DNA of 52,029 nt. Source: a virus. The notes beneath the pieces were generated by a model. That model made no database searches, was not told where the DNA came from, and was given only the letters and a program-made list of their open reading frames with translations. Positions 19,482 through 38,691 of the stretch are shown here, one piece after another. The first letter of the stretch is position 1. Each line of letters begins with the position of its first letter. Made by a program: the position numbers and the translations under genes. The stretch lies in UHGV virus genome UHGV-0205583; one strand, written 5' to 3'.

Positions 19482-19504
19482 AATCACTTCTCCGGCCGTA
19501 ACGG

Positions 19505-20403: not shown

Positions 20404-20433
20404 ATTAAAGCATTGGTTTATGTTTGATGTCAA
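20404..20433 (-). promoter_or_regulatory. candidate leftward early promoter (pL-like), TTGACA-N18-TTTAAT
   Basis: Good sigma70 hexamers on the minus strand just left of the cI terminator. The flanking TTTGCAT..TATAAATCC segment resembles the sequence at the cro promoter. Confidence 0.35.
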
Positions 20434-20510
20434 CATTGGATTTATACAGATGCAAACTTTTGCTTTAATCGAGACAGGGGAGCTGTTGGAGTGATTGAGG
20501 CTGCGCGGCA

Positions 20511-20540
20511 GGCAAAAAAAAACCGGCATTTGCCGGTTTC
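20511..20540 (-). terminator. rho-independent terminator of the repressor gene
   Basis: Minus-strand AAACCGGCA-aa-TGCCGGTTT stem followed by T8. Confidence 0.7.
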
Positions 20541-20560
20541 ATGGGGTGAGATCAGAGATG

Positions 20561-20950
20561 TTAGTTAGTGTCGCTAGCCTTAAATCGACCACGGAGATAT
20601 TTCTCAACATAATCATCGATTTCTTTTAGGCGGACTTCAAACGTATCAATCATTCTCTCTTGTTCAGCCTCAGGTAACTGCCTAAACAGACGTAACATTT
20701 TGCTCTCATTTGGCTTGAGGCCTGAATCTTCAGATACTTTCTCTCCAAGCAACCAAGTTACAGACACATTGGCAGCTTCCGCGAGGGCAATTGCGGACTT
20801 TTTACTGATTACTCCTTTCTTAAACCACCCATTCACCGCTTGAGGTGTAACTCCAGCAATGCGAGCCATATCCGCCTTGCTGATCCCTCTTTGAGTAATT
20901 TCTTCCAAACGAGCAATCAGTTGGTTGTTGAGTTCTTCAGTGTTTTTCAT
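20561..20950 (-). CDS. CI-type phage repressor (Xre HTH only, no S24 peptidase domain)
   Basis: 129 aa with an HTH (ISKADMARIAGVTPQAVNGWFKKG). Divergent from cro. No C-terminal Ser-Lys peptidase domain. Confidence 0.8.
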   Translation of the reverse strand: MKNTEELNNQLIARLEEITQRGISKADMARIAGVTPQAVNGWFKKGVISKKSAIALAEAANVSVTWLLGEKVSEDSGLKPNESKMLRLFRQLPEAEQERMIDTFEVRLKEIDDYVEKYLRGRFKASDTN

Positions 20951-20995
20951 AAGCCCATTGTAAAGGTTTAGTTTATAGTCACAATAAATTAAAAA

Positions 20996-21027
20996 TTTGC
21001 ATTGAATATAAACCTATGCTTTATTAT
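20996..21027 (+). promoter_or_regulatory. candidate pR/operator region (TTGCAT-N17-TTTATT) sharing a 19-mer with the pL side
   Basis: TTTGCATTGAATATAAACC here matches TTTGCATCTGTATAAATCC at 20436..20454 (reverse complement) in 15 of 19 positions. Confidence 0.4.
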
Positions 21028-21051
21028 GCCTAACTTAACGAGGAGATAGAT

Positions 21052-21267
21052 ATGACAGCCCTTGATAACGCAATTCGAGTAGCTGGCTCAGCCAATAAAT
21101 TAGCATCAACGCTTGGAGTAAGCGGCATGGCAGTAAGTCAGTGGAAAACAAAAGGTATTGTGCCTTCATCGCGAGTTTTACAGGTTTTTAATGCAACGGG
21201 CGTTACGCCTCATGAATTACGTCCTGATCTATATCCGAATCCGACGGATGGAATACCTAAGGAGTGA
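21052..21267 (+). CDS. Cro/YdaS-like HTH regulator
   Basis: 71 aa with an HTH (LASTLGVSGMAVSQWKTKG). Divergent from cI. Confidence 0.7.
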   Translation: MTALDNAIRVAGSANKLASTLGVSGMAVSQWKTKGIVPSSRVLQVFNATGVTPHELRPDLYPNPTDGIPKE

Positions 21268-21269
21268 CC

Positions 21270-21824
21270 ATGCAAACCACCTCTTTTGAAAATCATACTC
21301 CGGTGATGAGTATGCAACTGAAAACGGAAAATCAGTATTTGCCCCGTCGGCGTGACGGCAAGAAATGCCGAGCCATTTTGGCCGCCGTTCAGGAATGGGA
21401 GTCCTCATTACCTGGGCGTGCGCAAGACCACGTCGCGCAGCTGGTGGCCGAACAGTGGGAGAAACAAAACGGGCGCGGTATCAGCGTCAATAAACAAAAT
21501 CTGTATCGCTACCTGAAAAACGAGGGCGGTTCAGAGAAGTACACCAGTTATGTCATCCAGCTTTCGGCGGCGATCGCTGATGCAATGCCGATAGAGATCG
21601 CGCGCAAACATGGCCTAAAACATGGCTTAACTGAAACTGAGCTGGTGGCCAATGCAATCAAAGAATGCAGCGAAGCGCACCAGGCCAAGTTACTTGGCGC
21701 ACCTCTGCAGAAACTAGAGCGTGAAATACGGGAAGCTGCAATTGCACTTTTTAACATGCTCCCTGCAGATGCGGCGGGACCACTACTGGCGAGCATCAGC
21801 GCCGTAGCGCCGCAATTTTTTTAA
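21270..21824 (+). CDS. CII/YdaT-like early regulatory protein
   Basis: An AAGGAG SD sits 6 nt before the ATG at 21270. The position after cro is the same as in the Rac ydaS-ydaT arrangement. Confidence 0.45.
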   Translation: MQTTSFENHTPVMSMQLKTENQYLPRRRDGKKCRAILAAVQEWESSLPGRAQDHVAQLVAEQWEKQNGRGISVNKQNLYRYLKNEGGSEKYTSYVIQLSAAIADAMPIEIARKHGLKHGLTETELVANAIKECSEAHQAKLLGAPLQKLEREIREAAIALFNMLPADAAGPLLASISAVAPQFF

Positions 21825-21847
21825 TCGAGTTTTGACAATGACCACCA
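21823..21847 (+). promoter_or_regulatory. copy 3 of junction motif (TAA-TCGAGTTTTGACAATGACCACCAGCA)
   Basis: Starts at the stop codon of the upstream gene. Its ATG at 21838 opens a 61-codon out-of-frame ORF across the rep start. Confidence 0.6.
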
Positions 21848-21875
21848 GCACCAGCTGGTTAATAAGAGGTTTCAG

Positions 21876-22859
21876 ATGGCCCGCATCAGAACAGTTAAAC
21901 CTGAATTCTGGACAGATGAGAAGGTGGTGGAATGTTCAATTCCAGCGCGTCTCCTGTTTATCGGGTTGTTCAACTTCGCCAACGATATGGGATGCCTTGA
22001 GCGTTCGCCAAAACGGTTGAAGATGCAAATCTTCCCTGCGGACGCGCTCGATTGCGAACCACTAATACAGGAACTGATTACTCATGGATTACTCACTGAG
22101 TATTCAGTGAATGATGTCTGCTATTTGCAGATTAAAGGTTTCCTTAAGCATCAAAAAATAAACAGGCCTTCGGCCTCAAAAATACCTCTTCCGCCAGAAT
22201 TCACTGAGTCTAAGGCAGGAAAGGAAGAAAAGAGAGCTCCTAATCAAGGAGGGCTCAGTGAGGACTCAGTGAATCCTCATGGAGGACTCACTGACGGAAA
22301 AGGAAGGGAAGGGAAGGGAAAAGGATCAAACCCCACTCTCTATGCGCAGGAGAGAAATTTTCCCCAGCAACCTCAGTATCTGCCTGGAGTGGATATTCCG
22401 ATCGGGAAATTCGCCATGCACGACCTTTGGCTGCCGTCACAGGACTGGCCGCGACTGGCTGCTACCTGGGGTATAGCGCTTCCCGAACCGGCATACCTGC
22501 CGACAGAGCTGGCAGAGTTCACCGCGTACTGGAAATCCGAGGGGAAAGTGTTCACTCAGATTCAGTGGGAGCAGAAATTTGCCCGCAGCGTGATAAGTGC
22601 CAGAGCCAAATCTAAACCGCAACCAGCAACCGGAGGTAAAGACCATGCAGGAATTCAACCAGTTAACACCGCATCCCGGGCAGTTCAGGAAATTCAGGCA
22701 GCCAGAGAACGCTGGGAAAAGCAAAACGGACTTGCTGGCGGCGGATACGGCATGGCGGCTATGGACAGTCATGGGGGAAATATTTTCGAACCGGTGGACC
22801 CAGAAGAACGGGGCGGCGCCCTCGGATATGTGGATTGCCCAGATCGGATCGATGAGTGA
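21876..22859 (+). CDS. phage replication-initiation protein (YdaU/O-like), putative
   Basis: 327 aa with an AGAGG SD and a basic N-terminal domain, at the position of the Rac ydaU gene. The C-terminal third overlaps the next ORF. Confidence 0.5.
   Translation: MARIRTVKPEFWTDEKVVECSIPARLLFIGLFNFANDMGCLERSPKRLKMQIFPADALDCEPLIQELITHGLLTEYSVNDVCYLQIKGFLKHQKINRPSASKIPLPPEFTESKAGKEEKRAPNQGGLSEDSVNPHGGLTDGKGREGKGKGSNPTLYAQERNFPQQPQYLPGVDIPIGKFAMHDLWLPSQDWPRLAATWGIALPEPAYLPTELAEFTAYWKSEGKVFTQIQWEQKFARSVISARAKSKPQPATGGKDHAGIQPVNTASRAVQEIQAARERWEKQNGLAGGGYGMAAMDSHGGNIFEPVDPEERGGALGYVDCPDRIDE
22299..22323. repeat. (GGGAA)n pentanucleotide microsatellite inside the replication gene
   Basis: AAGGAAGGGAAGGGAAGGGAAAAGG encodes GKGREGKGKGS. 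Confidence 0.8.
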
Positions 22860-23316
22860 AGCCCAGATTACCCTGGTCTGCAGTCAGTGCATGGAGCGCT
22901 GCGCCGCGGGTAACACATGGCCACCGGATCTGGCTGAATTCGTTGCTCTGGTATCTGCCAGCGGTGCTAACCCGTTCAATCTGACATCCGAATCTATAAT
23001 GGCGGAATACAAGCGCTGGAGGAATGAGTCTTACCGATACTCGGGCAGCGACAAATACCCATGGAAACAGGATGTTCTCTATCACATTTGCATTGAGATG
23101 CGCAGAACCGGAGTTGAGAGGAACCTGACGGAGGGAGAGCTGAAAAAACTGGCAGAAAACTTACTCACGAAATGGACCAAACACCTGGCTAACGGGTTTT
23201 CGATTCCGCCAATTCGTCAGCAGTTGGCAGCACCGAGACATCCAGCAGGACCGACGCCAGCGCAGATTCTGATGGAAGAGTACAAACGCCGCAAGGCGGC
23301 AGGTTTAACCAAGTAA
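22645..23316 (+). CDS. hypothetical replication-associated protein
   Basis: 224 aa from an ATG with a GGAGG SD. No Walker A motif, so not DnaC-like. Overlaps the 3' end of the previous ORF. Confidence 0.4.
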   Translation: MQEFNQLTPHPGQFRKFRQPENAGKSKTDLLAADTAWRLWTVMGEIFSNRWTQKNGAAPSDMWIAQIGSMSEAQITLVCSQCMERCAAGNTWPPDLAEFVALVSASGANPFNLTSESIMAEYKRWRNESYRYSGSDKYPWKQDVLYHICIEMRRTGVERNLTEGELKKLAENLLTKWTKHLANGFSIPPIRQQLAAPRHPAGPTPAQILMEEYKRRKAAGLTK

Positions 23317-23317
23317 A

Positions 23318-23337
23318 CGAGTTTTGACCATGACCAA
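23318..23337 (+). promoter_or_regulatory. copy 4 of junction motif (TAA-ACGAGTTTTGACCATGACCAAAC)
   Basis: Lies directly after the stop of the upstream gene. Its ATG at 23330 is the start of the next gene. Confidence 0.6.
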
Positions 23338-23770
23338 ACAATCAAAAACCAAAGTAACCAAAGCGCAGATGGTGCTTGCCATCGTTAGCCGGACGCCAGA
23401 ATGCGTCCTGCAGGATGTCTGCGATGCGCTGGACTTGCAAGCCAGTACGGCAGGTAACTTGCTGCGGCAGCTCCATGCCGCGGGAAAACTCCATCGTACC
23501 CATAACGGTTGCCAGTATGTCTACCGAGTTGTTGCAGGCGTTGAGGTTCCCGATGTTGCCCTGCCGCAGGCTGTAACACAATTATCTGAAGAGGATGTGA
23601 AAAAAATCCAGGACGCACTGGCCCTGGCGAAGACGCTGGAAGACAAAAAGCTGTGGCGCCGGGCTGCGACTGTTTACACATCGATGCTTGGGATGACTAC
23701 AACAGCAAACGAACTCTGGTTGCTTGCCAAAATGCGCAACCGCTGCCTGCGCAATGCGACGAGGTGCTGA
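23330..23770 (+). CDS. hypothetical winged-helix-like protein
   Basis: 147 aa with no clear SD. The start codon is embedded in junction motif copy 4. Confidence 0.4.
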   Translation: MTKQSKTKVTKAQMVLAIVSRTPECVLQDVCDALDLQASTAGNLLRQLHAAGKLHRTHNGCQYVYRVVAGVEVPDVALPQAVTQLSEEDVKKIQDALALAKTLEDKKLWRRAATVYTSMLGMTTTANELWLLAKMRNRCLRNATRC

Positions 23771-24002
23771 TTATGCCTAAAATGGAATCAACAGCATCTG
23801 GTACGGGATGTCAAAGCTAAGTTCAAATATTCCGGGATGAGGCAAAGCTGAGATGTCCGCTGAGTGCCAGGAGCAGACATTAAGGAAATTGTGATATTTT
23901 GAGTGATGACAAGCCGTTTCCACTCAATTTTTAATTCTCAACACGCCCACTGCTGCAACTCCAGAAAATGATAGATATAATGTTCACACATTTACTTTAT
24001 TA

Positions 24003-24236
24003 ATGCTTCTCGCTGAGCGTTGCCGCATAACGCTCGGTGGATAGGCATTGATGCGTTTCAAAGCTCTGCTAAACACTGCCTGTGAGGCATAGCCGAGGCG
24101 GAGAGCGACTGTGTAAATTAAGTTCTTATCGTGAATAATTAAGTGGCCAGCGAGACGCATTCGTACTTCTCTTGCATAGCGTTGGACACGCTGCTGAACG
24201 GAGTAATGGTTGTGACGGCCATTGCCACCTCAGTCG
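24003..24236 (-). pseudogene. AraC-family regulator C-terminal fragment
   Basis: Translation ...YAREVRMRLAGHLIIHDKNLIYTVALRLGYASQAVFSRALKRINAYPPSVMRQ matches the AraC second HTH. There is no upstream start, and a stop precedes it in frame. Confidence 0.5.
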
Positions 24237-24717
24237 CGGCACTGACCCCAAGAAGAAGTCATTTGTTGCGATGACAAGTGGCTTGGAAAACTATATAGAC
24301 GTGATGAGATCTCAATGGGTATTGCTCACAGCCTTGAAAGAGGAGGTCTTCTTCGAAAAAAAATCAATGGCCTAGTTTTGATTGATAGCTACGCCCTGAT
24401 CAATAGGTTGGGCTTCGGTGAAGCCCGGAGTGATTTGTGCAATGGGTGTTTGCAGAAAATTGAGAATGCTTAGGCCGAATGACCAAAAATCAGAAAGTCT
24501 TTTTGGGGGCGGGAGCGCCATCTTCTGTAAAGCTTGCGGTCCATATGATGGCATACTGGCTTGTGGCGCGACTCTTCTGTCACTAGGCAGCGTACTGTGT
24601 ACTAAGCATTACGTCCAGACTCGTCTTAAGAAGATGGCACTCATTCCTCGAGGTCAAGAAGCGCGGAAAAAAGACGAAGCGATGCCAGGAGGACAATGGT
24701 CAGTGATGATCCAGTAG

Positions 24718-24984
24718 TCAGCTGGTTTGTATGCGATCATAATATTCGATGATTTGCAGCGCAACTGCAGCAATTTGCACAGCTTCTTCTCTGCTGGTAC
24801 CGGCTGCTTTTCCCCCGAAACGGTCATGGAGAACGGCCTGATGAAACTCTCCCACTTCCTCCCCAAGGATAGCCCCCCAGATGAAAGGATCCAGATTGCG
24901 GTCTGCTCCCCATTTTGCATCCTGCCGTTGCATTTCAGCTAACACATCTTTCAGTGCTTCGGTTTCTTGATGTTTATATTTCAT
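24718..24984 (-). CDS. MazG-like nucleotide pyrophosphohydrolase domain protein
   Basis: 88 aa with an EEVGE...EE helix pair (GAILGEEVGEFHQAV...REEAVQIAAVALQI). Confidence 0.5.
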   Translation of the reverse strand: MKYKHQETEALKDVLAEMQRQDAKWGADRNLDPFIWGAILGEEVGEFHQAVLHDRFGGKAAGTSREEAVQIAAVALQIIEYYDRIQTS

Positions 24985-25129
24985 GATTCCCGTTACGTAC
25001 CCGTCATTTTATGCGCTATCTTAAACATTAAATCTATGCTGAGTCCATTGCGATGACGCATCGCATTTTGTGATTGAACGGTAAGTTTGCTATAAACGTA
25101 GCAATGACAAAAATTTAAAGTGGATAATC

Positions 25130-25456
25130 TTGTACATTACCTTTCAAAGCAAAAAGTTAAGAGCTCTTTGTGAGAGTATGCACAATGCGAATGAGAACCT
25201 TGGTGAGAAACTAGCATCCAAGCTACGCGCACGCCTTTCCGATATCACCGTGGCGGACAATATTTTAGCATTGCCCGTCGGTTCGCCGGAGGTATGCTTT
25301 GAGGAAGGGGAAGAGTGTATTACAATTACCCTTTTGGGCGATAAAAAAATGGGATTTGTTTGTGGGAATACGATTCAGCCAAAAAATCAAGACAATACGA
25401 TTGACTGGTCCCAGGTCAGCCGGATACGGTTAGTGTTCATAGGTGATGTGAAATGA
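25130..25456 (+). CDS. RelE/HigB-like putative toxin
   Basis: 108 aa. The N-terminal part resembles the plasmid-maintenance killer family (ITFQSKKLRAL...). Its stop overlaps the start of the Xre-peptidase gene (ATGA). Confidence 0.4.
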   Translation: MYITFQSKKLRALCESMHNANENLGEKLASKLRARLSDITVADNILALPVGSPEVCFEEGEECITITLLGDKKMGFVCGNTIQPKNQDNTIDWSQVSRIRLVFIGDVK

Positions 25457-26535
25457 TGGTAACGCAGGACTTCCAGCCTGACTGGGTATCTCCACCCGGT
25501 GATACGATTATAGATCTGATGGATGAACACGGAATTTCTGATGAGGAGTTGAGTAAAAAAATAGGCTTGTCCCTTGATCGGGGTCAGCAACTTCTTGAAG
25601 GGAAACTCCGACTGAATCCGTCCCTGGCCGACAAGCTTGAAGAGCTGTTCAGTGTGTCGACGGACTTCTGGATCAGGCGCGAAGATGCTTATCGCAGGCA
25701 AATAGAACATATCCAGAAAGTTAACAGCGACTGGCTGGAATCATTGCCCGTACGCGATATGATGGAGTTTGGCTGGATCCCGAAAACCACAACGCGGGAA
25801 AGTAAATTCCGACACTGTCTGTCGTTCTTCGGTATACACTCCGTGAGTGAGTTTTTTCACAAAATACATTCTGATGCTCCACTGGTCGCCTTTCGTAAAT
25901 CATTGAATCTGACGACTGAGCCTGTCGCTGATCTGGTATGGCTGACCCGTGCAGAACAGTTGAGTGCAAAACAGGTCTGCGCAGAATGGAATAAAAAGGC
26001 GCTGCAGGCGCTTTTGCCGGAGCTTCGTAGAGCAACAAACGAACCTGATATGGGAATTTTTATCCCTCACATTCGGCGGCTTCTCGCGACTGCCGGGGTT
26101 TCGCTGATCGTGTTGCCAACGCCCAAGGGATGCCGGGCCAGTGGTGCCACCTGCTTTTTCACTCCAGACCGCGCCACGCTGGTCATGAGTTTCCGCTATC
26201 TTACCGATGACCATTTCTGGTTTACGCTGTTTCATGAGATTGGGCATCTCATTCTGCACGAGGCAGTGCAGGTTCGTGCGGAAGGTAAAGAAGGCCTGTC
26301 GACAGAAGAGGAAAAAGAAGCCGATACATTTGCTGTAGACGTCCTCATTCCTGAGGAATACAGGCAGCAACTCAGGCGCTATGGTGTTCGGCACTGGAGG
26401 GACATCGTCCGCACGGCCCGTAAAATAGGCGTATCAAAAGGGATTGTTCTCGGGTACTTACAACATGAGGGCAACATTCCTTTTTCTCACCTTAACCGGC
26501 TTAAGGTGAGATACAGTAAAGAAGACATTGTATAA
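25453..26535 (+). CDS. Xre-family HTH fused to ImmA/IrrE (COG2856) zinc metallopeptidase
   Basis: N-terminal HTH (ISDEELSKKIGLSLDRGQQLLEGK) and a C-terminal HEIGH zinc motif (FTLFHEIGHLILHE...EADTFA). Confidence 0.75.
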   Translation: MMVTQDFQPDWVSPPGDTIIDLMDEHGISDEELSKKIGLSLDRGQQLLEGKLRLNPSLADKLEELFSVSTDFWIRREDAYRRQIEHIQKVNSDWLESLPVRDMMEFGWIPKTTTRESKFRHCLSFFGIHSVSEFFHKIHSDAPLVAFRKSLNLTTEPVADLVWLTRAEQLSAKQVCAEWNKKALQALLPELRRATNEPDMGIFIPHIRRLLATAGVSLIVLPTPKGCRASGATCFFTPDRATLVMSFRYLTDDHFWFTLFHEIGHLILHEAVQVRAEGKEGLSTEEEKEADTFAVDVLIPEEYRQQLRRYGVRHWRDIVRTARKIGVSKGIVLGYLQHEGNIPFSHLNRLKVRYSKEDIV

Positions 26536-26537
26536 GT

Positions 26538-27482
26538 TCAGCCGCCAAAATAGACGTAGCGATCAGGTGACTTCTGCCAGTTACACAGCGCGTCTTCAAT
26601 GACCTGCATCCTGAGATATGGTGCAGGGATAATTTCGGCAAGTTCAGCCAGTTTATCATTCAGAGTCTCTAGCCTATCACCTGCGCTCCGGCTGTTACTA
26701 AACAGCAGCCGACTCCCCTGAAGAGGGCCAGTAGCTCCCTTCAAAAAAGCATGCCCCGGTTCTGCCTCGATGAGTCCGGTTTTTCTTAGCATAGTCAGGT
26801 AATCAAATCGGGCGGTTCGTCCGAATGAAACCACCGCATTCAGGCCTGAATACAGCAATTCGAAAAGAGTAGCAGGTGTTGCCGCGAGGCTCCTTGCTTC
26901 TGCAAACCGGGCCTCGTGGCTGTATGTTGCACCAATAAATCCGAGATATGAACGAAAAACGACAGGTATAGAACGACGTGAATGATATTTTTTCGTTTCA
27001 TATTTGCGGTGGTTACCATACTGTCTTAGACTGCTATGTAGGGTCAGCTCATCAGAAACGCTGGCAAACCACTGTTCAAATGCATCAAAGTCATCAGTTA
27101 TGGCATCCCATGTCCACGTCTGGGTACCTAGTCCACTGTAAATATCGCGGCACAAAACCCAGCCTGTTTTACTACTCCGGCCAAAATGCGTGGCCAGAAA
27201 AACCAGCCAGCAGGCTTCGTCATAGTTGTTTTCACGCAGATGCAGACACGCAGCACGAAGAGGATCAAATAAATCTGAGTTTGGCTCTTTTCTTAGCGGA
27301 TTCATATAATCGGTTCGTGATGTCAGCGTTGACATATAGCGAATGCGGCGAATACTGTCAATAATCTGAAAGGCTAATACATTATAGTGAGCCGCAGAAC
27401 TCAGTCCGTTTAGGATATGTTTATCGCGACTGAAGTTTTGAAGAGCGGCGACCAACTGGCTTGCCTGACTGTGTCTGTTCAT
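26538..27482 (-). CDS. hypothetical protein, operon partner of the thymidylate-synthase-like gene
   Basis: 314 aa whose start overlaps the ThyA-like stop (ATGA at 27482). No family assigned. Confidence 0.5.
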   Translation of the reverse strand: MNRHSQASQLVAALQNFSRDKHILNGLSSAAHYNVLAFQIIDSIRRIRYMSTLTSRTDYMNPLRKEPNSDLFDPLRAACLHLRENNYDEACWLVFLATHFGRSSKTGWVLCRDIYSGLGTQTWTWDAITDDFDAFEQWFASVSDELTLHSSLRQYGNHRKYETKKYHSRRSIPVVFRSYLGFIGATYSHEARFAEARSLAATPATLFELLYSGLNAVVSFGRTARFDYLTMLRKTGLIEAEPGHAFLKGATGPLQGSRLLFSNSRSAGDRLETLNDKLAELAEIIPAPYLRMQVIEDALCNWQKSPDRYVYFGG

Positions 27483-28717
27483 TATATTTTCCCGTCAAAA
27501 ATAAATCGGTATTCCTGATTATTCAACGCAGTCAGCTCCTGACGGGCCAGCTCGTTGTGTGCCGACGTATGTGAACGTAACAAAAAATGGACTTTTATCA
27601 CGCGCAGAAGATCCTTCCAGTAGTCACTCAAGGGCGTAGTATCGATATTAAATTCCTTGTTTTCCCGCAGAGCCTTTTCTGCTTCAAGGATGACTGTAAT
27701 GTCCTTTAAGGATTGAATTTCGGGCATATCACCCATCACCGGCAAGGTACTCATAAAGCCTTCTTGTTGTAGCGCTTTTACTTGTTCAAAATGTTCTTCA
27801 TAGATATGGAGGCTTGAGACGAAGTGATGATAATACCCCAGTTTGCATCCGGTGAGGCGGGCGACCAGTTCCTGCAACATCGTGAAGGAGAACACATCAT
27901 GGGGTAAGCCCATAAAGGCATCGTTAGAGCGCATACAGACAAAAAGATGCAATGCATCTTGTCTGACAATAAATTGCAACGATATAGTGCACGGAATATC
28001 GGCATATTCTGTCTGCTCTGGATTACCCGTCACCAGATCTGAGGCATCAAACAGTTGTATCAGCGCGCGTCGAGTAGTTCTTTTCTCCTGCAGCAGACTG
28101 ATGACATTTTCCAACTGATTATACAGCCCGTGCATACTAAATAATCTCGGACCGTATCCCCCGTGTATTCTGCCGTCGGATTCAGCGTATTTTACGTAGC
28201 GAGGTATGAAGTGCCGGATGAAATCGAGATCGTTCTGGGCTGAGAGGTACCATAGCAATTCCCCCAGACAGCTGACAATTTTACCGCGGGATTCTGTCCT
28301 ACTTATTCTGCGGCGAGGATCGGTGAGAATCAGGTAGGCTCCCAGAATTTCAATATTTGCTCCTTTAGTGGGAGTATTCCAGAGTCCGCCAGTAAGGATC
28401 GCCTGATGGACATCGTTTAACAGATCGTCAACACATTCAGCCGTCACCAGAAGAGTCATAAACTGCCTGTTATATAATGAATGTAACAAATCATTACCAC
28501 TAGTGCGATAAATAGTCAACATGCCATTAGTAAAAACAGGGCTATAACCGCTATGACACATATCATCAGGTGCGAGGTTTGACACCCATGTTTCCTCCAT
28601 TCCCTCTGGAAGCAAAAAATGTTCACGTAGAATAAGAACTGAGGGACGCAGACGCATGCAGGCCACTCGCCAGGGTATTCCTCCAAATGAACTGGCCGGT
28701 TTCCTAATATCAGCCAT
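27482..28717 (-). CDS. thymidylate synthase superfamily enzyme (ThyA-like / candidate dNMP hydroxymethylase) with N- and C-terminal extensions
   Basis: Aligns by eye to E. coli ThyA across its core blocks (LGELLWYLS, YGPRLFSMHG, RRALIQLFD, and the catalytic IPCTISLQFIVRQDALHLFVCMRSNDAFMGLPHDVFSFTMLQ). 411 aa versus 264 aa for ThyA. Confidence 0.75.
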   Translation of the reverse strand: MADIRKPASSFGGIPWRVACMRLRPSVLILREHFLLPEGMEETWVSNLAPDDMCHSGYSPVFTNGMLTIYRTSGNDLLHSLYNRQFMTLLVTAECVDDLLNDVHQAILTGGLWNTPTKGANIEILGAYLILTDPRRRISRTESRGKIVSCLGELLWYLSAQNDLDFIRHFIPRYVKYAESDGRIHGGYGPRLFSMHGLYNQLENVISLLQEKRTTRRALIQLFDASDLVTGNPEQTEYADIPCTISLQFIVRQDALHLFVCMRSNDAFMGLPHDVFSFTMLQELVARLTGCKLGYYHHFVSSLHIYEEHFEQVKALQQEGFMSTLPVMGDMPEIQSLKDITVILEAEKALRENKEFNIDTTPLSDYWKDLLRVIKVHFLLRSHTSAHNELARQELTALNNQEYRFIFDGKI

Positions 28718-28750
28718 TAAAATAGCGCTGTAAACTTCATTACCAAATGC

Positions 28751-28818
28751 GGCGCGCCTGTAAGGGCCTGACTACAGGTTTAAACACTGTGCAACCACAA
28801 GTCCTAGGTCCGCTCTTC
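28751..28818. other. cluster of rare restriction sites: AscI (28751), PmeI (28778), AvrII (28803), SapI (28812)
   Basis: Two 8-bp sites, a 6-bp site and a type IIS site lie within 68 bp. Short GC-rich inverted repeats follow at 28807..28832 and 28851..28872. Confidence 0.7.
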
Positions 28819-29045
28819 GCTCATAGCGGACCTCCAAATCAGTTAGTTTGTCCGCTCTGTGCCAAGAGCGGAATCTGGAACGCCAGAGGTAGCAACGTTT
28901 CTTATCAAAGGTGTTGATCACCACAAAAATGACTGTATCCCTGTGATAGCGGATTTCGTCCTTTGTGGAGAAAAGATCAATCTAAACATGAGCATGGGTT
29001 AGCGAAAAGTGGCATTAAACGCTTGAACATTTCACCTAACAAGTA

Positions 29046-29065
29046 TACTGTTTATTTATACAGTA
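29046..29065. promoter_or_regulatory. LexA (SOS) box upstream of dinI homologue
   Basis: TACTGTTTATTTATACAGTA fits CTGT-N8-ACAG perfectly and lies 20 nt upstream of the ATG. Confidence 0.85.
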
Positions 29066-29084
29066 CTTGCGTGAGGAGCTAGTT

Positions 29085-29318
29085 ATGAAAGTGGAAATCA
29101 CAATTGATCGCCAAAAAAAATTGCCGGATGGCGCTGTGCCTGCTCTGGAGAAGGAGCTACTGCGGCGATTGGATCAAAACTTTAATAACTGCAGTCTTGT
29201 GATTCGTCGGGCCAGCTCCGATGGTTTGACCGTGCTTGGTGGAATGGACGGAGATAAAAAACGTATTGAGGAAATCCTGCAGGACACCTGGGAAAGCGCT
29301 GATGACTGGTTTTGTTAA
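29085..29318 (+). CDS. dinI: DinI-family DNA-damage-inducible protein
   Basis: High identity to E. coli DinI by eye (EVTI...LP.GA..AL..EL.RR, RIEEILQDTWESADDWF). Confidence 0.85.
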   Translation: MKVEITIDRQKKLPDGAVPALEKELLRRLDQNFNNCSLVIRRASSDGLTVLGGMDGDKKRIEEILQDTWESADDWFC

Positions 29319-29361
29319 GTTGAGGTCCATTGGCTTGCCTGGTTTATTTTGGGGATTTGGC

Positions 29362-29620
29362 TGTGAGTAAAAAACAAGAAATGCCGAACACCGGCTATGC
29401 AATTATCAGATGCGATGATGGGGTGATCGTTGCTCGTCTGACATCCTTTCCTGTGTCTGAGCGCGCTCTGATGTACCGGCGCGGAGACACTGTTTCGTTT
29501 ATGCCTTTGCAGCCGGATGAGATAGTGGGGACTCTCTCTCTTTTTTCACAGATGATTGAAAAGGCTAAGTCTGGAGTTGGTTACCAGGTTCCCCCTGGTT
29601 CTGTTACAATCCCGTCATAG
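29362..29620 (+). CDS. hypothetical protein co-transcribed with dinI (candidate antirepressor)
   Basis: About 80-86 aa, directly downstream of dinI in the LexA-boxed operon. Start is GTG at 29362 or ATG at 29378. Confidence 0.35.
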
Positions 29621-29660
29621 GCCTGAACAACCTATACCTGCTGCGTCGCGGAGAGAAACC

Positions 29661-30053
29661 ATGACGCAAACCCCCGAAGTATCAAAATCCCATCAGACTG
29701 GTGCTCCTTCATCGAGCGCCGGTTTGCTTTCGTCTTCAAAACTAACTTTTCGACAGCAGGAAGTTTTCGATCTGCTGGTGGCCTACATCAATCAGCATGG
29801 CTACCCACCTACGCTATCTGAGCTGGCCGATATGCTCGGCGTTAGCTCGTCTAATGCTGTCCTGTTGCATCTGCGTGCGTTAGAGAGAAAAAATTTTATA
29901 AAACTCTCTCGCCGTGTCTCCAGAGGAATTTCCATCGTCGGGCGAAAGGAGCCTGTGCTCGCCGTGCAGCTGCTGCAGGAAATGATCGCTGAAGAACCCG
30001 GCGCGCGTGAAAGAGCGATTGAGTTTTTACGACTGTTCGGTGATCAGCCATGA
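29661..30053 (+). CDS. LexA N-terminal DNA-binding-domain-only protein
   Basis: Residues 25-95 align to LexA 1-70 (LTxRQQEVFDL...G.PPT..E.A..LG..S.NA...HL.AL.RK..I....SRGI). No S24 peptidase domain follows. Confidence 0.6.
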   Translation: MTQTPEVSKSHQTGAPSSSAGLLSSSKLTFRQQEVFDLLVAYINQHGYPPTLSELADMLGVSSSNAVLLHLRALERKNFIKLSRRVSRGISIVGRKEPVLAVQLLQEMIAEEPGARERAIEFLRLFGDQP

Positions 30054-30253
30054 AGAAAAGTTGGTTTTTACACGAGCAACTTTCAGAGGCTGAAGCTACA
30101 GAGCTGGTGGAGCGATACCGTAAAAATAACTTTGTGGTTGAGAAAAGCTTGTCCAGAGACTTTGCATCGTGGGAGATCCGCGTGCTGTTGCCGGAATCGA
30201 AGAAGCCGCCACGGATTGACAGGACCTACATACAGAAGATGTGGAGGGACTGA
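30050..30253 (+). CDS. hypothetical small protein
   Basis: 67-aa ORF overlapping both neighbouring genes in the operon. Confidence 0.3.
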   Translation: MKKSWFLHEQLSEAEATELVERYRKNNFVVEKSLSRDFASWEIRVLLPESKKPPRIDRTYIQKMWRD

Positions 30254-31284
30254 TGCGAGCTTTGCTTAACGTGGATATTGCACGCCATCTTGGAATTGTG
30301 CTGCTTAAGCCGGGTAGTGAATTAATGCCGTTATTCGGTGCCGGCCGAGTTCTTGTGGAAATACCGCCGGCAAGCATGAAAAAGATACCCTGCGGGCGTC
30401 TTCCTAATGCCCGGCAGCCGTTGCGGGATGATATGGGGCTCAGACCATTTTTCATGAAGAAGGCAGTTATCACTGCGGCTGGTGGTGTTAGTGCTTTAGA
30501 GTCATGGTTGCGCCGGCAGGTTAAAAACTGTCAGTGGACACATTCCGATTACCATCACCATGAGCTCGTCCCGTTTCGCCATTCGACGGGTGTAATAATC
30601 GCATGCTGGCACTGTGATAATGAGCTGAAAAACCAAACAGAACAAACCCTCGATCAACTGGTAGGTGTTAATAACGCTGACTGGGTAATCGACACTGCCC
30701 GCATCGCGCTTGGTCTGGACGCTCAGCGCTCATTGTCACTGGCGGAGCTATGCTGGTGGGCGGTAGGCGCCGGGATTGGCGATGAAATTACAGAAGAAAT
30801 GGCGCGCCGATCCCTGCGTATTAAAGACGATGGCATTAAATCGATTTACAGGGAGAGTGAAATTGTTCCGTCGGTACCGGCCACCAGTATTCTTTCTCCC
30901 CGTCTCGAAAAAACAATCAAGCCAACGGCAATAACAACGCCGGGCAAACCTCTGGTTCCTGTGAACGTCGATCCTGTTGCTCCGGCGACACTATTCGCGA
31001 GACCTAAGCGGAGCCGATGGTTATCAGCTGACTTTATCTCATGGGTTAAAAAACAGCCGTGTATGTGCTGTGGGCAGCCTGCAGATGATGCACATCATCT
31101 TATTGGCTGGGGGCAGGGCGGCGTAGGCACCAAGGCCCACGATATTTTTACGATCCCATTATGCCGCAAGCACCACCGCGCTTTGCACCATGACCCTGCC
31201 GCTTTTGAGCGTGAATACGGCACCCAGCCGGTATTAATTATTAAATTGCTGGACCGGGCATACGCGCTCGGCGTTCTGGCGTAG
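30241..31284 (+). CDS. DUF968-like prophage protein with C-terminal Cys/His (HNH-like) cluster
   Basis: C-terminal CMCCGQPADDAHHL...LCRKHHRALHH. Sits at the position of the YdfU-type gene that precedes Q in the Qin prophage. Confidence 0.45.
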   Translation: MEGLMRALLNVDIARHLGIVLLKPGSELMPLFGAGRVLVEIPPASMKKIPCGRLPNARQPLRDDMGLRPFFMKKAVITAAGGVSALESWLRRQVKNCQWTHSDYHHHELVPFRHSTGVIIACWHCDNELKNQTEQTLDQLVGVNNADWVIDTARIALGLDAQRSLSLAELCWWAVGAGIGDEITEEMARRSLRIKDDGIKSIYRESEIVPSVPATSILSPRLEKTIKPTAITTPGKPLVPVNVDPVAPATLFARPKRSRWLSADFISWVKKQPCMCCGQPADDAHHLIGWGQGGVGTKAHDIFTIPLCRKHHRALHHDPAAFEREYGTQPVLIIKLLDRAYALGVLA

Positions 31285-31300
31285 TAAGGAGAAGAACAGA

Positions 31301-31903
31301 ATGACACCACGTCAACGCCGTCTGCACCGTGCAGGATTAGCAACAGTTGCCGCCGCCCCGCGCAAAAGCTGGCTGGGCCGATTCACTCCCCTTAATGGTA
31401 TTCAGTCCGCCTGGATAAAATCTCTGCTTACTGTTTGGGGGGAAGGGATGAGAGGAGGTGCAGCCCCGCGTAAACCATCAGGACATTCATGCTGGCGAGG
31501 TATGAAGGGTGATCACTGGTCAGATAGAGCATTAGAGCGCTTTACGGCAGCAATCGAGCAGGCAAGGAGTGAAGGCTATCGCGGGCGGCAGGCACTAAGC
31601 AGGGCGCATGCCATTTTGTGGCCAAAAACTCCAACTGTTGCCATTGACGCTGCGATCACTGAGGATGATGTTGAATTTGTTGAACGATGTGTACTGGCGA
31701 TATTTGAAACGGGTGATCCTGTTTATCTCGTTGGCGTTAACTATTACACCACCCGCAAAAAAATCTCAGACATAACACGGGAAATACAGCTGGTGGCTCC
31801 ATGGTTAACAGACAGTGAGGCCCGGAAAAGAGTGCGCTGGTGCCTTGAAATATTCAGAGCAAAAGCTTTCCTTTCTGTTCATAAGGCGATTCATGCGGAT
31901 TAG
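31301..31903 (+). CDS. candidate late-gene regulator (Q-position protein)
   Basis: 200 aa. Assignment is positional only (DUF968, then this gene, then terminator, late promoter and lysis genes). No family motif recognised. Confidence 0.3.
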   Translation: MTPRQRRLHRAGLATVAAAPRKSWLGRFTPLNGIQSAWIKSLLTVWGEGMRGGAAPRKPSGHSCWRGMKGDHWSDRALERFTAAIEQARSEGYRGRQALSRAHAILWPKTPTVAIDAAITEDDVEFVERCVLAIFETGDPVYLVGVNYYTTRKKISDITREIQLVAPWLTDSEARKRVRWCLEIFRAKAFLSVHKAIHAD

Positions 31904-32023
31904 CAAAAAGTGCTATGTTGCCTTTTTGGTATTGAAAATGGGCCAGAAAGTTAGATAATTCCTTCATGCTTGGCAGAGCTGCGCCACTCGGCAGCGACAA
32001 AAAGCGACAATCTGAATATAACG

Positions 32024-32048
32024 AAAACCCCGCCCGTGCGGGGTTTTT
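32024..32048. terminator. bidirectional rho-independent terminator
   Basis: AAAA-CCCCGC-ccgt-GCGGGG-TTTTT lies between two convergent genes. Confidence 0.7.
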
Positions 32049-32146
32049 GCTTTCCGGCGATATGACAGGGGTATTCGCGAGATGCGCTGCATCAATACCC
32101 CTGTCATATCGTCGTATTGCATACGCAATCTCACATGCTTCAGCAT

Positions 32147-32350
32147 TCACTGAGGATTTTTAGTGATTTTTTTGAAGATCTCTAGGGCTTCGGTTGTTAA
32201 CTGATCATGTTCGCTAAAGTAACTGTCACATGCTGCCTGCTTTTGAGCAGGGGATAGATTAGGGTTGCTTGTTAATTCAGCAGTTTTAGCTGCTATTTCT
32301 GCCAAACGTTCAAAAATCTCTGAAATTCTTTGGTTATCAGTAGATAGCAT
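32147..32350 (-). CDS. hypothetical small protein
   Basis: 67-aa ORF convergent with the Q-position gene. Start context is AGGTAAGTAAAATG. Confidence 0.3.
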   Translation of the reverse strand: MLSTDNQRISEIFERLAEIAAKTAELTSNPNLSPAQKQAACDSYFSEHDQLTTEALEIFKKITKNPQ

Positions 32351-32495
32351 TTTACTTACCTCGTATTTACCTGATATCAGTGAGTGCTACATTGAGTCAG
32401 GGCTTCGCAATAGCTTTAAGTATTAGAATGCATACAATTTAAGTGGGCGTTGTTGGCTTATATTATGGCAGAGGCGCTGGCGGTATGGTCAGATA

Positions 32496-32525
32496 TTGAC
32501 ACTTTGAATGTTTGCATCATAAATT
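32496..32525 (+). promoter_or_regulatory. candidate late promoter (TTGACA-N18-TAAATT) driving structured RNA copy 1
   Basis: Consensus -35 hexamer. The -10 hexamer ends 5 nt before the first G of the element. Confidence 0.4.
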
Positions 32526-32530
32526 ATTGA

Positions 32531-32641
32531 GGTGGTGAATCCCCCTATGCGGAGGGGCGACCAGTCAGTTACAGAAACCTGTAAATGCAGCGCGGGCCAT
32601 GCCGACTGGGGCATGCTCACCGGGAGGCACCCGGCACCACA
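32531..32641 (+). ncRNA. put-like structured leader RNA, copy 1
   Basis: Closing stem GGUGGUG...CACCACA. Internal hairpins CCCCU-augcgg-AGGGG, UUACAG-aaac-CUGUAA, CAUGCC-gacugg-GGCAUG and CCGGG-aggca-CCCGG. Confidence 0.45.
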
Positions 32642-32804
32642 CTGTCACTAAGCATATTGAATATTTCATAGTGGGTTTACTTTTGCGGTTGCCCTTCTAT
32701 GTTTATAGAACGTAACGGCAAAAGTGAATGCTTCCTGGTAAATCGGTAGCTCGGACTATTAGGTGCACCTTCCTTTCGTTACAGCCTTGGTTGCCAATTT
32801 TCTT

Positions 32805-32830
32805 CCCGCTTCTCTGGCGGGTTTTTTTAT
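32805..32830 (+). terminator. rho-independent terminator about 165 nt downstream of RNA copy 1 (tR-prime-like)
   Basis: CCCGC-ttctctg-GCGGG followed by T7. Confidence 0.65.
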
Positions 32831-32984
32831 TCATAATCTGCCAAAAAAAACATCAAAGCAAGGAAGGCGATGGATTCATTTGCAGGAACTCCTTTCCCCT
32901 TCAACGGAGACAGGCTCAAAGCAATAAGAAGCGGAACAGAAGGATGCTTTGCGCCGAAAAATTAGGTCATAGCGACGCATGGCA

Positions 32985-33013
32985 TTGAAGAGACGTTATT
33001 GAGATGTTAAGTT
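32985..33013 (+). promoter_or_regulatory. candidate promoter (TTGAAG-N17-TAAGTT) driving structured RNA copy 2
   Basis: Same geometry as for copy 1, with the -10 hexamer 5 nt upstream of GGTGGTG. Confidence 0.35.
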
Positions 33014-33018
33014 TTATG

Positions 33019-33123
33019 GGTGGTGAATCCCCCTAGCGGAGGGGCGTAAACAGTTAGAAGCGAATCCTCAGCGCGAGTCACGGTGACTGACCAACGACTT
33101 ACCGGGAAGCACCCGGCACCACA
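33019..33123 (+). ncRNA. put-like structured leader RNA, copy 2
   Basis: Same architecture as copy 1, with compensatory changes in two stems (CCCCU-agcgg-AGGGG and GUCAC-gg-GUGAC replacing CAUGCC..GGCAUG). Confidence 0.45.
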
Positions 33124-33314
33124 ACTTCACCTCAAGCCCACGTTAACGCGTGGGCTGTTCTTTTCCAGCGGATCTATTCAAAGGCTGCGCATTTGCGTGG
33201 CCTTTTTCATTTCAGGCTCACGGGAATCATCATCGATACGGCTCGTTGTTAAATCAGCCCGATGGGCCTGACCCCCTACACGCACAAAGCACCCCGTTAA
33301 TCCGGAGGTGGAGT

Positions 33315-33530
33315 ATGTATCGAATGGACAAGCTAACAACAGGTATTGCCTACGGAACGTCCGCAGGTAACGCGGGGTTCTGGATGTTGCAATTGCTCGA
33401 CAAAGTATCCCCATCCCAGTGGGCCGCTATTGGTGTTCTAGGAAGTCTGGTATTTGGCTTGCTGACATACCTGACGAATCTGTATTTCAAAATTAAAGAG
33501 GACCGGCGAAAAGCTGTGCGAGGTGAATAA
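33315..33530 (+). CDS. holin (class II, dual-start MYRM)
   Basis: 71 aa with two TM helices and a GGAGG SD. Its stop overlaps the endolysin start (TAATG). Confidence 0.7.
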
Positions 33531-34027
33531 TGTCTCCGACACTACGTAAAAGCGTTCTTGCTGCAGTCGGCGGTGGAGCCTTTGCGATTGCGTCTGCACT
33601 CATTACTGGCCCGACGGGTAATGATGGGCTTGAGGGAGTGCGATACGACCCTTATCAGGATGTGGTAGGTGTCTGGACGGTTTGCTACGGCCACACAGGT
33701 AAAGACATCATGCTCGGCAAAACCTATACCGAGGCAGAGTGTCGGGCGCTATTAAATAAAGACCTGAATACCGTCGCTAGGCAGATCAACCCTTACATCA
33801 AAAAACCGATCCCAGAAACGATGCGTGGGGCTCTGTACTCATTCGCCTATAACGTCGGTGCCGGGAACTTCCAGACCTCTACTCTGCTTCATAAAATCAA
33901 CAAGGGGGACCAGAAAGGTGCATGTAATCAACTGCGCCGCTGGACCTATGCCAAAGGTAAGCAGTGGAAAGGACTTATTACCCGGAGGGAAATTGAGCGT
34001 GAAGTTTGTTTATGGGAGCAAAGATGA
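33530..34027 (+). CDS. endolysin, GH24 lysozyme
   Basis: 165 aa with T4-lysozyme-family motifs (EG....YxD..G..T.G.GHT). Confidence 0.85.
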
Positions 34028-34374
34028 ATCGCTTAACCGCCGTTATCATCGCTATAACAATCCTGCTGGCCTCCAACGTGATTTCGTGGCGCTCAGGCTG
34101 GAGTTCTCACGCTGATCACATCAAGGCTCAGGCTTCAAAGAAGAGAGAGAAGGCCGAGAATACCATTAAGCCTGTAGAGGAAAAGGCCGCTACTGCTAAC
34201 GAAGCGGGTAAGGTCATCTACAAAACAATAACCCGTGACGTGGTGAAATATGTTCAGTCTCCGAATCGTATTGTATGCAGGTTTGATGATGCAGCTGTGC
34301 AGCTGCGCCAGCGCGCCATCGATGCTGCCAACTCCATCCCCGGATTTGATGAGCCCGCCGTGCAAAGCAAGTGA
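34024..34374 (+). CDS. i-spanin (Rz)
   Basis: N-terminal TM segment ([17 protein letters not shown]) followed by coiled coil. Its ATG overlaps the endolysin stop. Confidence 0.6.
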
Positions 34375-34492
34375 CGCCGGGAAGGATAGCGATGAAGATT
34401 TACAGTCTGACATAGAAACCGCTCAGTGCCTACGCCAGCTCCGTTTGGATAAGTATCGCTGGCAGGTGTACTATCGGGCGGTGAGTAAGTAA
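34286..34492 (+). CDS. o-spanin (Rz1) lipoprotein, overlapping Rz in the +1 frame
   Basis: Lipobox LCSC and a Pro-rich sequence. Extends past the Rz stop. Confidence 0.5.
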   Translation: MMQLCSCASAPSMLPTPSPDLMSPPCKASDAGKDSDEDLQSDIETAQCLRQLRLDKYRWQVYYRAVSK

Positions 34493-34642
34493 CAGGTATA
34501 TCACATGAAATAAGTGGCCTTAAGTGAACAAAAGAATCTGAAAACAAGACATTCAAGCTTTCAGCATCAAAATGTTTGTATCTAATTCAGGTGGGGTCAT
34601 GCACTATAGGATCTCAAACCACTCTTAACTAAGTAGCCACTC

Positions 34643-34840
34643 ATGACAGTAAACTTACTACCACAACTTCCATGCGGTTATCGTTACGGCATTGAGCGCT
34701 CGATCCGGCCCCACACTGATGCGGAATTTTTTCCGCCACAAGGGTGTGTTATCAAATCTGTCAACTTTGGGGATGGTGTGGTTATTTGTGTGCCCATCCA
34801 ATGGTACGTTAAACAATTAGATTTATGGGTCACTGTCTAA
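34643..34840 (+). CDS. hypothetical small protein
   Basis: 65-aa ORF of weak plausibility. Confidence 0.25.
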   Translation: MTVNLLPQLPCGYRYGIERSIRPHTDAEFFPPQGCVIKSVNFGDGVVICVPIQWYVKQLDLWVTV

Positions 34841-35026
34841 GGAACCATCGAATAATATGTTAGTTACCGGCCTCGTTCGGGAGAGCTGAGAATTGCCATC
34901 AAAAGACCAGCAGAGATGCCTGGTGCTCTGGTTGAATGTTCCGGCAAGTTGAAAATGATTGGTTCAATGAGCTCTTTCGATATTTAAATGCTTTCGATAA
35001 CTTAAATGAAGCTATCACCACGTTAT

Positions 35027-38690: not shown

Positions 38691-38691
38691 T

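Follow-up and report, generated by a model that had tools for sequence, protein, structure and literature searches.

A mobile cassette pairing a predicted dCMP 5-hydroxymethylase with an aGPT-Pplase clade 3 protein in a Klebsiella lambdoid phage, with a possible role in anti-phage or inter-element conflict

In phage T4, hydroxymethyl-deoxycytidine monophosphate (hydroxymethyl-dCMP) is made via the MazG-superfamily dCTPase gp56 and gp42, and the phage needs its own kinase, gp1; host kinases reject hydroxymethyl-dCMP. MilA, the CMP 5-hydroxymethylase of mildiomycin biosynthesis, has an extra five-helix domain; Lys133′ and Ala176 favor ribose, Arg and Ser favor deoxyribose, the A176S/K133R double mutant is switched from CMP to dCMP, and Asp186 specifies cytosine where Asn specifies uracil (PMC5175136). 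Thymidine hypermodification in phages employs a dUMP hydroxymethylase, a 5-hydroxymethyldeoxyuridine (5-hmdU) DNA kinase, and an amino-acid:DNA transferase (AADT); in the clade-2 aGPT-Pplase enzymes, 5-phosphomethyl-dU in DNA is attacked at C6 with the help of an essential Cys and a neighboring Glu and loses its phosphate (PMC8989533), the essential Cys of gp46 being Cys247 (PMC11472151). Among defense systems, Escherichia coli DS-4 ("NTTI"), validated in the DefensePredictor study (Science 2026, PMC13092281), comprises a thymidylate synthase (TS), a deoxynucleoside monophosphate (dNMP) kinase, an HMUDK_hel (5-hmdU-kinase helical-domain) protein, a TIR protein, and a hypothetical protein. PD-λ-2 (Vassallo et al. 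2022) is a validated three-gene abortive-infection system with a HigB-like A component, a HigA-like helix-turn-helix (HTH)-peptidase B that is toxic alone and rescued by A, and a third gene needed for defense (PMC9519451). Here, we describe a cassette built from known kinds of parts in the virus genome UHGV-0205583, whose entire stretch of 52,029 nucleotides (1..52029) is referred to as the window.

The cassette consists of a ThyA-fold enzyme gene and an aGPT-Pplase clade 3 gene on one strand and, converging on them, a small gene and an HTH–ImmA/IrrE peptidase gene, with a MazG-like gene in enterobacteria. With a probability of about one half, we regard it as a self-contained mobile unit, inserted as an accessory element in a Klebsiella lambdoid temperate phage, that acts most likely in anti-phage or inter-element conflict. 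Its features, in window coordinates, are the following.

23946..28806: mobile block that chromosomal islands of E. coli ES7/TC24 and Citrobacter also carry (92% nucleotide identity, blastn).
24730..28522: core in common with a widespread E. coli version (78% nucleotide identity, blastn).
24718..24984, minus strand: MazG-like protein, 88 amino acids, EEVGE motif, labeled after the names given to its orthologues by the NCBI annotation pipeline PGAP ("MazG-like family protein").
25130..25456, plus strand: small protein, 108 amino acids, its gene running into the start of the peptidase gene; in the position of PD-λ-2A.
25453..26535, plus strand: fusion of an Xre/HigA-like HTH domain with an ImmA/IrrE M78 metallopeptidase, 360 amino acids, HEIGH motif (Pfam Peptidase_M78, HTH_3).
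26538..27482, minus strand: aGPT-Pplase clade 3 protein (aGPT3), 314 amino acids, all-helical, with a helix-hairpin-helix (HhH) glycosylase-like fold and related to AADTs (Pfam).
27482..28459, minus strand: ThyA-fold enzyme, 325 amino acids, predicted dCMP 5-hydroxymethylase, MilA-like with a C-terminal helical domain; its start is Met87 of a 411-amino-acid open reading frame (ORF).
28460..28717, minus strand: non-coding 5′ leader and promoter region of the ThyA-fold gene (in-frame TAA and indels in relatives).

Two minus-strand ORFs had been reported in a preliminary description of this DNA, and both exist: 27482..28717 (411 amino acids), the longest minus-strand ORF for the ThyA-fold gene, and 26538..27482 (314 amino acids). 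For the former, Pfam Thymidylat_synt (PF00303) gave an E-value of 4.4e-28, with a match confined to residues 146–318 of 411. The alignment to ThyA through the catalytic Cys proposed there was confirmed, the nucleophilic Cys243 (IPCTISLQF) being kept in 188 of 189 aligned family members (residue numbers of this enzyme follow the 411-amino-acid ORF, and conservation was counted in this alignment of 189). An assignment as plain ThyA was rejected: the best NCBIfam ThyA model scored 88 bits versus an equivalog cut-off of 327, all eight models stayed far under their cut-offs, and the position of E. coli N177 is occupied by Asp. The closest solved relative is MilA (5b6d/5jnh) with an E-value of 2.4e-43 over residues 26–298 of the 325-residue protein, whereas the best-scoring thymidylate synthase reached 1.7e-21. 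The extension at the C-terminus that had been claimed does exist, and it aligns with the additional helical domain at the C-terminus of MilA.

The key residues of the enzyme are Cys243, Glu153, Arg216, Ser264, Asp274, His304, and Tyr306. Asp274, Ser264, and His304 are invariant (189/189), and Arg216 is present in 182 of the 189 members. The base-specificity position corresponding to E. coli N177 holds Asp in every member (189/189), whereas E. coli ThyA and the TS of DS-4 have Asn. The phosphate-binding arginines (Arg263, Arg216/217) are retained, so the substrate should be a mononucleotide. With MilA and T4 gp42, the enzyme has the ThyA fold, the catalytic Cys, Glu, His, and Tyr, of which His and Tyr bind the sugar, and the cytosine-type Asp in common, and with MilA also the helical domain that stands in place of the C-terminal lid of ThyA. 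Arg and Ser occupy the positions of MilA Lys133 and Ala176, which predicts a preference for deoxyribose as in T4 gp42; unlike MilA and gp42, the enzyme is encoded outside an antibiotic cluster and outside a lytic-phage nucleotide-metabolism module. Taken together, these residues predict a dCMP 5-hydroxymethylase, in line with the hydroxymethylase-type ThyA paralogue first suggested. A hydroxymethyl rather than a methyl product would be expected by analogy to the closest relative and because a C-terminal domain of the MilA type stands where ThyA has its lid.

The start of this gene was assigned to Met87 of the ORF. A database search returned 1,541 homologues, nearly all of 320–335 amino acids and covering 79% of the 411-amino-acid ORF, and 161 of the 189 aligned members have fewer than 10 residues ahead of the Met87 position. 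The region was further compared in relatives from E. coli ES7, Citrobacter, and Enterobacter, whose partner protein is 95–97% identical (92–97% over the comparison). These carry an in-frame TAA seven codons upstream of Met87, where the window reads TTA (28477..28479); farther upstream, the E. coli and Citrobacter copies contain a frame-shifting indel, and the Enterobacter sequence diverges entirely. Compared with these relatives, a single TAA-to-TTA difference opens the frame upstream of the true start and creates the 411-amino-acid ORF, and because of this opened frame near-identical genes have been called as 325, 367, or 391 amino acids by PGAP and other gene callers. A genuine N-terminal domain of about 90 residues, as initially described, was rejected on the grounds of the short N-termini of the homologues and of the in-frame TAA and indels in relatives; the extension is an artefact of ORF calling. 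Because of the homologue starts, the TAA and indels of the relatives, and a promoter-like region upstream, the gene is placed at 27482..28459. Neither the name "thymidylate synthase" nor the 367- or 411-amino-acid models suit the annotation of these genes.

The promoter-like sequence is TTGACT-18-AATGAT at 28519..28490; its TTGACT together with the following GGTAATGATTTGTTAC is kept even where the surrounding sequence of the relatives has diverged. Just upstream of the start lies an inverted repeat, TAATGA-N10-TCATTA, possibly an operator. A common operator was also sought between the two promoter regions of the cassette, which share no k-mer of at least 8 nt. At the junction to the aGPT3 gene, stop and start share one nucleotide (TAATG), not the four of the ATGA overlap initially reported; a 4-nt overlap is found in the common E. 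coli version.

The partner protein, previously taken to be of no recognized family, matches Pfam aGPT-Pplase3 (PF18746) with an E-value of 1.3e-89 (300.7 bits versus a gathering cut-off of 25; residues 34–313 of 314), as the guess of an aGPT-Pplase-type partner in the same description had anticipated. It also matches Pfam ADDT (PF18724, amino-acid:DNA transferase) with an E-value of 1.7e-56 and has the fold of PaMx11 gp46. The family, which carries a name in both Pfam and PGAP, is large (4,121 database matches), and its invariant motifs are GNHRKY, FGR-x3-FDYLTM, and a C-terminal Q-x2-ED-x2-CNWQK that contains E296, D297, and C300. For comparison with a characterized AADT, gp51 was located in the phage M6 genome and confirmed as an ADDT member (E-value 1.4e-46). 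The clade-3 hidden Markov model did not detect M6 gp51, and the Cys region was aligned by hhalign and motif inspection only: IQEVETVLCKWK of M6 gp51 (E243, C247) falls on MQVIEDALCNWQK of the window protein (E296, C300), with an E-value of 0.045 that is weak, so that this alignment rests on the motif. The Cys/Glu catalytic dyad of the amino-acid:DNA transferases thus appears to be retained in aGPT3. The protein is mildly basic (isoelectric point 8.8), gave no match in an NCBIfam scan, and was unrelated to the HMUDK_hel protein of DS-4 by BLASTP.

Compared with the phage pathway of M6 gp51, ViI gp247, and PaMx11 gp46, aGPT3 belongs to clade 3 instead of clade 2, and its linked hydroxymethylase is of the cytosine type. 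Unlike that pathway, the cassette lacks a 5-hmdU DNA kinase and tailoring enzymes dependent on pyridoxal phosphate, radical SAM, or FAD, and it resides on bacterial islands, plasmids, and prophages and not in GenBank phage genomes.

The conservation of the cassette was analyzed with one genome per species, in which relatives of aGPT3 occupied 356 stretches among 185,579 species genomes (at most 356 species). Eighty-one loci were examined (79 of the 356 stretches, an E. coli island locus, and the window), together with 23 loci from IMG/VR. The 79 loci come from at least eight phyla and include members of Proteobacteria, Acidobacteriota, Planctomycetota, Verrucomicrobiota, Bacteroidota, Chloroflexota, Myxococcota, Actinomycetota, Leptospira, and Saccharibacteria. 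The ThyA-fold gene lay upstream of the aGPT3 gene on the same strand in 75 of the 81 loci, five of the six misses coinciding with a contig end; the co-conservation that had been proposed as a check of a functional link is thus present. Downstream of the aGPT3 gene and in the reverse orientation, 79 of the 81 genome loci and 22 of the 23 viral loci had an HTH–ImmA/IrrE peptidase gene (approximately 360 amino acids); a gene for a small protein (approximately 110 amino acids) overlapped the start of the peptidase gene in 65 of 81 loci and in most of the viral ones. All 23 IMG/VR loci showed the cassette as far as the contigs extend. When neighboring genes were clustered, no further family apart from the MazG-like gene and a gene encoding a uracil-DNA-glycosylase (UDG)-fold protein (gene X) recurred in more than nine loci; therefore, the cassette is considered an autonomous unit. 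The conserved unit comprises four genes, and five in enterobacteria, where the MazG-like gene is added. The two-gene operon of the preliminary description accordingly holds as a tight pair (75/81 loci) and understates the extent of the unit.

The distribution across phyla is patchy and that of a mobile element. The clade-3 protein was absent from 50,697 GenBank phage records searched by tblastn, the block was likewise without a match in these records by megablast, and relatives of aGPT3 were found in only 24 of 2.9 million IMG/VR contigs; ten plasmids carried relatives. An identical aGPT3 protein turns up in 1,286 indexed blocks of public assemblies, the majority from Klebsiella, and at all eight chromosomal places among the matches listed (8/8) it occupies the same prophage site. 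The 78% identical version is present in 237 of 5,426 complete E. coli genomes (4.4%). Neither a dNMP kinase nor a 5-hmdU DNA kinase accompanied the cassette in the 81 genome and 23 viral loci or occurred among the window ORFs scanned.

The HTH-peptidase protein matches the PADLOC model PD-Lambda-2_B with an E-value of 5.2e-29, residues 15–341 aligning with model positions 60–378, which corresponds to nearly the full length. As with PD-λ-2A, a small gene overlaps the start of the peptidase gene. The small protein itself gave no PD-Lambda-2_A match; its position and overlap fit the A component, and its similarity to HigB/RelE-like proteins is faint: one of 25 family members matches Pfam HigB-like_toxin at 0.0032, and a "putative killer protein" in the PDB was hit with an E-value of 0.99. 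Source annotations name it a HigA/killer-suppression protein. Unlike in PD-λ-2, the P4-antitoxin-related C component is absent, and the convergent two-enzyme operon takes its place. PADLOC gave no match for the ThyA-fold and aGPT3 proteins and has no model for either enzyme.

The peptidase and aGPT3 genes converge with their stop codons 2 nt apart (26533..26540). Across phyla, in about 100 loci, these stops lie within a few nucleotides of each other or overlap and leave no room for terminators. The conserved 3′-to-3′ abutment suggests mutual transcriptional interference or antisense control of the two genes.

Further genes join the cassette in some lineages. The MazG-like gene clusters with it in seven loci, accompanies it only in Enterobacterales, and is part of both stretches found in E. 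coli, the 92% and the 78% identical one. Gene X is inserted in 29 loci, or about one-third of the lineages; it and two other window proteins had no NCBIfam match, and the UDG-fold family had no match in Pfam. A DUF4031 protein of about 100 amino acids (Pfam E-value 4.8e-27) was observed in or next to the cassette in five loci (L073:8836-9141, L075:8844-9146, and three others) and is a further optional component.

With respect to genomic context, the window represents the circularly permuted genome of a lambdoid temperate Klebsiella phage, and in related phages the sequence of its end runs on into that of its start. The cassette block sits between DnaT-like and lambda-P-like replication genes on one side and DinI, LexA-like, and DUF968 genes on the other; related Klebsiella phages, Kp4865-4 for one, do not have it. 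The enzyme operon is on the strand opposite to the flanking replication and DinI/LexA-like genes. The 92% identical block was found in a tRNA-Leu island of four E. coli genomes, where it is accompanied by an integrase, a type I restriction-modification (RM) system, a LeoA-like GTPase with an AAA ATPase, and a TIR fragment, and also in a Citrobacter chromosome. In the two E. coli genomes examined for the 78% version, a type I RM system, an AAA ATPase, insertion sequence elements, and a dGTPase-family gene lie beside it. Neighbors in diverse genomes include integrases, serine recombinases, transposases, type I S subunits, Shedu, and AbiEii, as well as unrelated genes. These surroundings support the alternative offered in the preliminary description, namely a defense module in the accessory region of a temperate phage.

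The link to defense was also drawn computationally before: Table S10 of the DefensePredictor study lists WP_000174035.1 as a "Predicted novel defense gene" with a log-odds score of 7.63, and aGPT-Pplase-containing systems are highlighted there as predicted and unvalidated (PMC13092281), possibly including this cassette. WP_000174035.1 corresponds to the TS in the cassette version common in E. coli, and the cassette was thus flagged beforehand as a likely defense gene. The resemblance to DS-4 concerns the ThyA-fold enzyme with a C-terminal extension (33% identity, E-value 2e-32), its linkage to a helical base-hypermodification enzyme, and the defense context. In contrast, the TS of DS-4 is of the uracil type (Asn), HMUDK_hel is not an aGPT-Pplase3 protein, and DS-4 has a dNMP kinase and a TIR effector and lacks the HTH-peptidase pair. 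In composition, the cassette shares only the TS with DS-4 and contains neither a kinase nor a TIR gene.

For the action of the cassette in conflict with phages or other elements, we infer substrates, products, order of steps, and a defense phenotype as follows. The enzyme operon would be read from its own promoter, against the flanking phage genes. The ThyA-fold enzyme, as a dimer, would convert dCMP and methylene-tetrahydrofolate to 5-hydroxymethyl-dCMP; in enterobacteria, the MazG-like pyrophosphatase may supply the dCMP from dCTP. The Cys/Glu dyad of aGPT3 would then attack C6 of a 5-hydroxymethyl-pyrimidine, either as a nucleotide or within DNA, so that the substituent at C5 is exchanged or lost; the UDG-fold protein would assist in about a third of the lineages. 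The PD-λ-2AB-like pair of the small protein and the HTH–ImmA/IrrE peptidase probably senses infection or controls and executes the response. As a net outcome, the deoxycytidine nucleotide pool may be diverted, replicating DNA may be marked or damaged, or both. Where a MazG-like protein and a hydroxymethylase occur without a kinase, as in enterobacteria, a drain of dCTP and dCMP into a dead-end nucleotide would be expected unless a phage kinase rescues it.

Several observations weigh against a role in conflict. Among the cassette genes, no effector of a known kind (nuclease, TIR, or pore) was found. As the cassette has no dNMP kinase, the route of 5-hydroxymethyl-dCMP into DNA is unexplained, and so is the presence of an AADT-like enzyme without the kinase that normally makes its phosphorylated substrate. 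The assignment of the small protein as HigB-like is faint. The MazG-like protein has no Pfam or NCBIfam match, and its label rests on the PGAP names of its orthologues and on the motif. Genes for defense and mobility make up only a minority of the immediate neighbors in diverse genomes. Finally, WP_000174035.1 is not in the DefensePredictor file of validated systems, and the cassette has the status of a prediction only.

Among the other explanations, an addiction or stabilization module without an antiviral role, in which the toxin-antitoxin pair is combined with enzymes serving as a metabolic toxin or as cargo, is unlikely. The homologue PD-λ-2B is toxic alone and rescued by A (PMC9519451), and the patchy, mobile distribution on prophages, islands, and plasmids would suit such a module. 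However, PD-λ-2 itself defends against phage, the cassette is co-located with RM, dGTPase, Shedu, and AbiE genes, and a machine-learning model trained on defense genes scores an orthologue highly. Addiction and defense are mutually compatible.

The explanation preferred in the preliminary description was modification of the phage's own DNA against restriction, hydroxymethyl-pyrimidine nucleotides being incorporated and decorated after replication by the aGPT-Pplase; we consider this slightly less likely again. The first descriptions of the two families came from base hypermodification by phages (PMC8989533), the cassette is found on a temperate phage genome, and the AADT fold and catalytic dyad are kept. 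Against this stand the missing dNMP and 5-hmdU DNA kinases in about 100 loci and in the scanned window ORFs, and a cytosine-type enzyme where the characterized AADTs act on phosphorylated 5-hmdU. The clade-3 protein is represented in 0 of the 50,697 phage records and in 24 of the 2.9 million IMG/VR contigs, and the same block (92% identical beside RM systems) occupies non-phage islands and plasmids. In addition, the operon runs on the strand opposite to the flanking phage genes, and the PD-λ-2AB-like regulator pair always goes along with it. On these grounds, self-hypermodification is disfavored.

A specific form of defense, which we rate as improbable, would supply phages with a "Trojan nucleotide." Only a broad-specificity dNMP kinase of the phage would bring 5-hydroxymethyl-dCMP, unusable by host kinases, toward the triphosphate, hydroxymethylcytosine would enter the replicating phage DNA, and the AADT-like enzyme, with the UDG-fold protein where present, would attack these bases covalently without prior phosphorylation, so that bulky adducts, or abasic sites and protein-DNA crosslinks, abort the infection. 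If true, this would establish a kinase-independent, cytosine-directed aGPT-Pplase activity and turn a counter-defense chemistry of phages on phages.

Equally improbable is an epigenetic marking of the DNA of the host or the element, as the modification half of a restriction-like system in which the HhH- and UDG-fold enzymes install a base derived from 5-hydroxymethylcytosine by substitution or base exchange. The five-gene version with two DNA-glycosylase-fold proteins, the isoelectric point of 8.8 of aGPT3, and the frequent type I RM neighbors are consistent with it. On the other hand, no cognate nuclease is conserved with the cassette, the neighboring RM systems are complete on their own, no route leads from hydroxymethyl-dCMP to DNA, and the toxin-antitoxin-like pair suggests an induced rather than a constitutive action. 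Synthesis of a small-molecule pyrimidine antimetabolite as by MilA/MilB or BcmA/BcmB, with an N-glycosidase-like enzyme freeing 5-hydroxymethylcytosine, is highly improbable in view of the deoxyribose-type specificity residues, unlike those of MilA and BcmA, of aGPT3 keeping the AADT Cys/Glu dyad and not glycosidase carboxylates, of the mobile, defense-like context, and of the lack of further conserved tailoring or export genes.

Returning to the action in conflict with phages or other elements, the cassette would unite a chemistry known to date only from the counter-defense of lytic phages (pyrimidine hydroxymethylation and Cys-dependent C5 substitution) with a toxin-antitoxin-like switch in bacterial defense islands. 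Should it be defensive, bacterial immunity would gain a mechanism that modifies nucleotides or DNA, and an activity would be defined for aGPT-Pplase clade 3 and for the UDG-fold family. The cassette is common, with thousands of homologues across phyla, and may yield enzymes that derivatize 5-hydroxymethylcytosine and would be useful for epigenetic sequencing.

The remaining features of the phage genome are given below.

8027..8863, minus strand: DUF6236 protein, 278 amino acids, in the lowest-GC stretch of the window (GC content 0.37 versus approximately 0.50 elsewhere).
10312..10794: UmuD-like protein (Peptidase_S24), between the tail genes and the integrase gene.
10736..12061: UmuC-like Y-family polymerase (IMS), between the tail genes and the integrase gene.
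12054..12725: SRAP/YedK-type SOS-response-associated peptidase, convergent, between the tail genes and the integrase gene.
29067..29318: DinI-like gene, directly past the cassette.
29556..30053: LexA DNA-binding domain only, without the peptidase domain, directly past the cassette.

The window appears to hold an entire temperate phage genome, circularly permuted. Its end matches Klebsiella phage ST846-OXA48phi9.2 up to position 43602 of the record, the match to its start follows directly from 43603 on, and the order of tail genes, accessory region, and integrase in the window is the vegetative and not the integrated one. No tRNA gene is present in the window, and a tRNA-linked island within it was rejected for this reason. 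The UmuD-like, UmuC-like, and SRAP/YedK genes form a phage-borne DNA-damage-tolerance module, and the DinI-like and LexA-like products may modulate the SOS response of the host. In a sibling prophage (Klebsiella JBIHIX010000001.1, L108:4568-6052), a reverse transcriptase of 494 amino acids (RVT_1) lies between the DinI and ThyA-fold genes, which suggests that the cassette site is a hotspot for defense-type cargo. Inside the 92% block, at 23984..24160, a 58-amino-acid C-terminal fragment of an AraC-family HTH protein (HTH_18, below the Pfam threshold) is probably a remnant from an earlier location. The DUF6236 gene, with its low GC content, looks like a separately acquired accessory gene.

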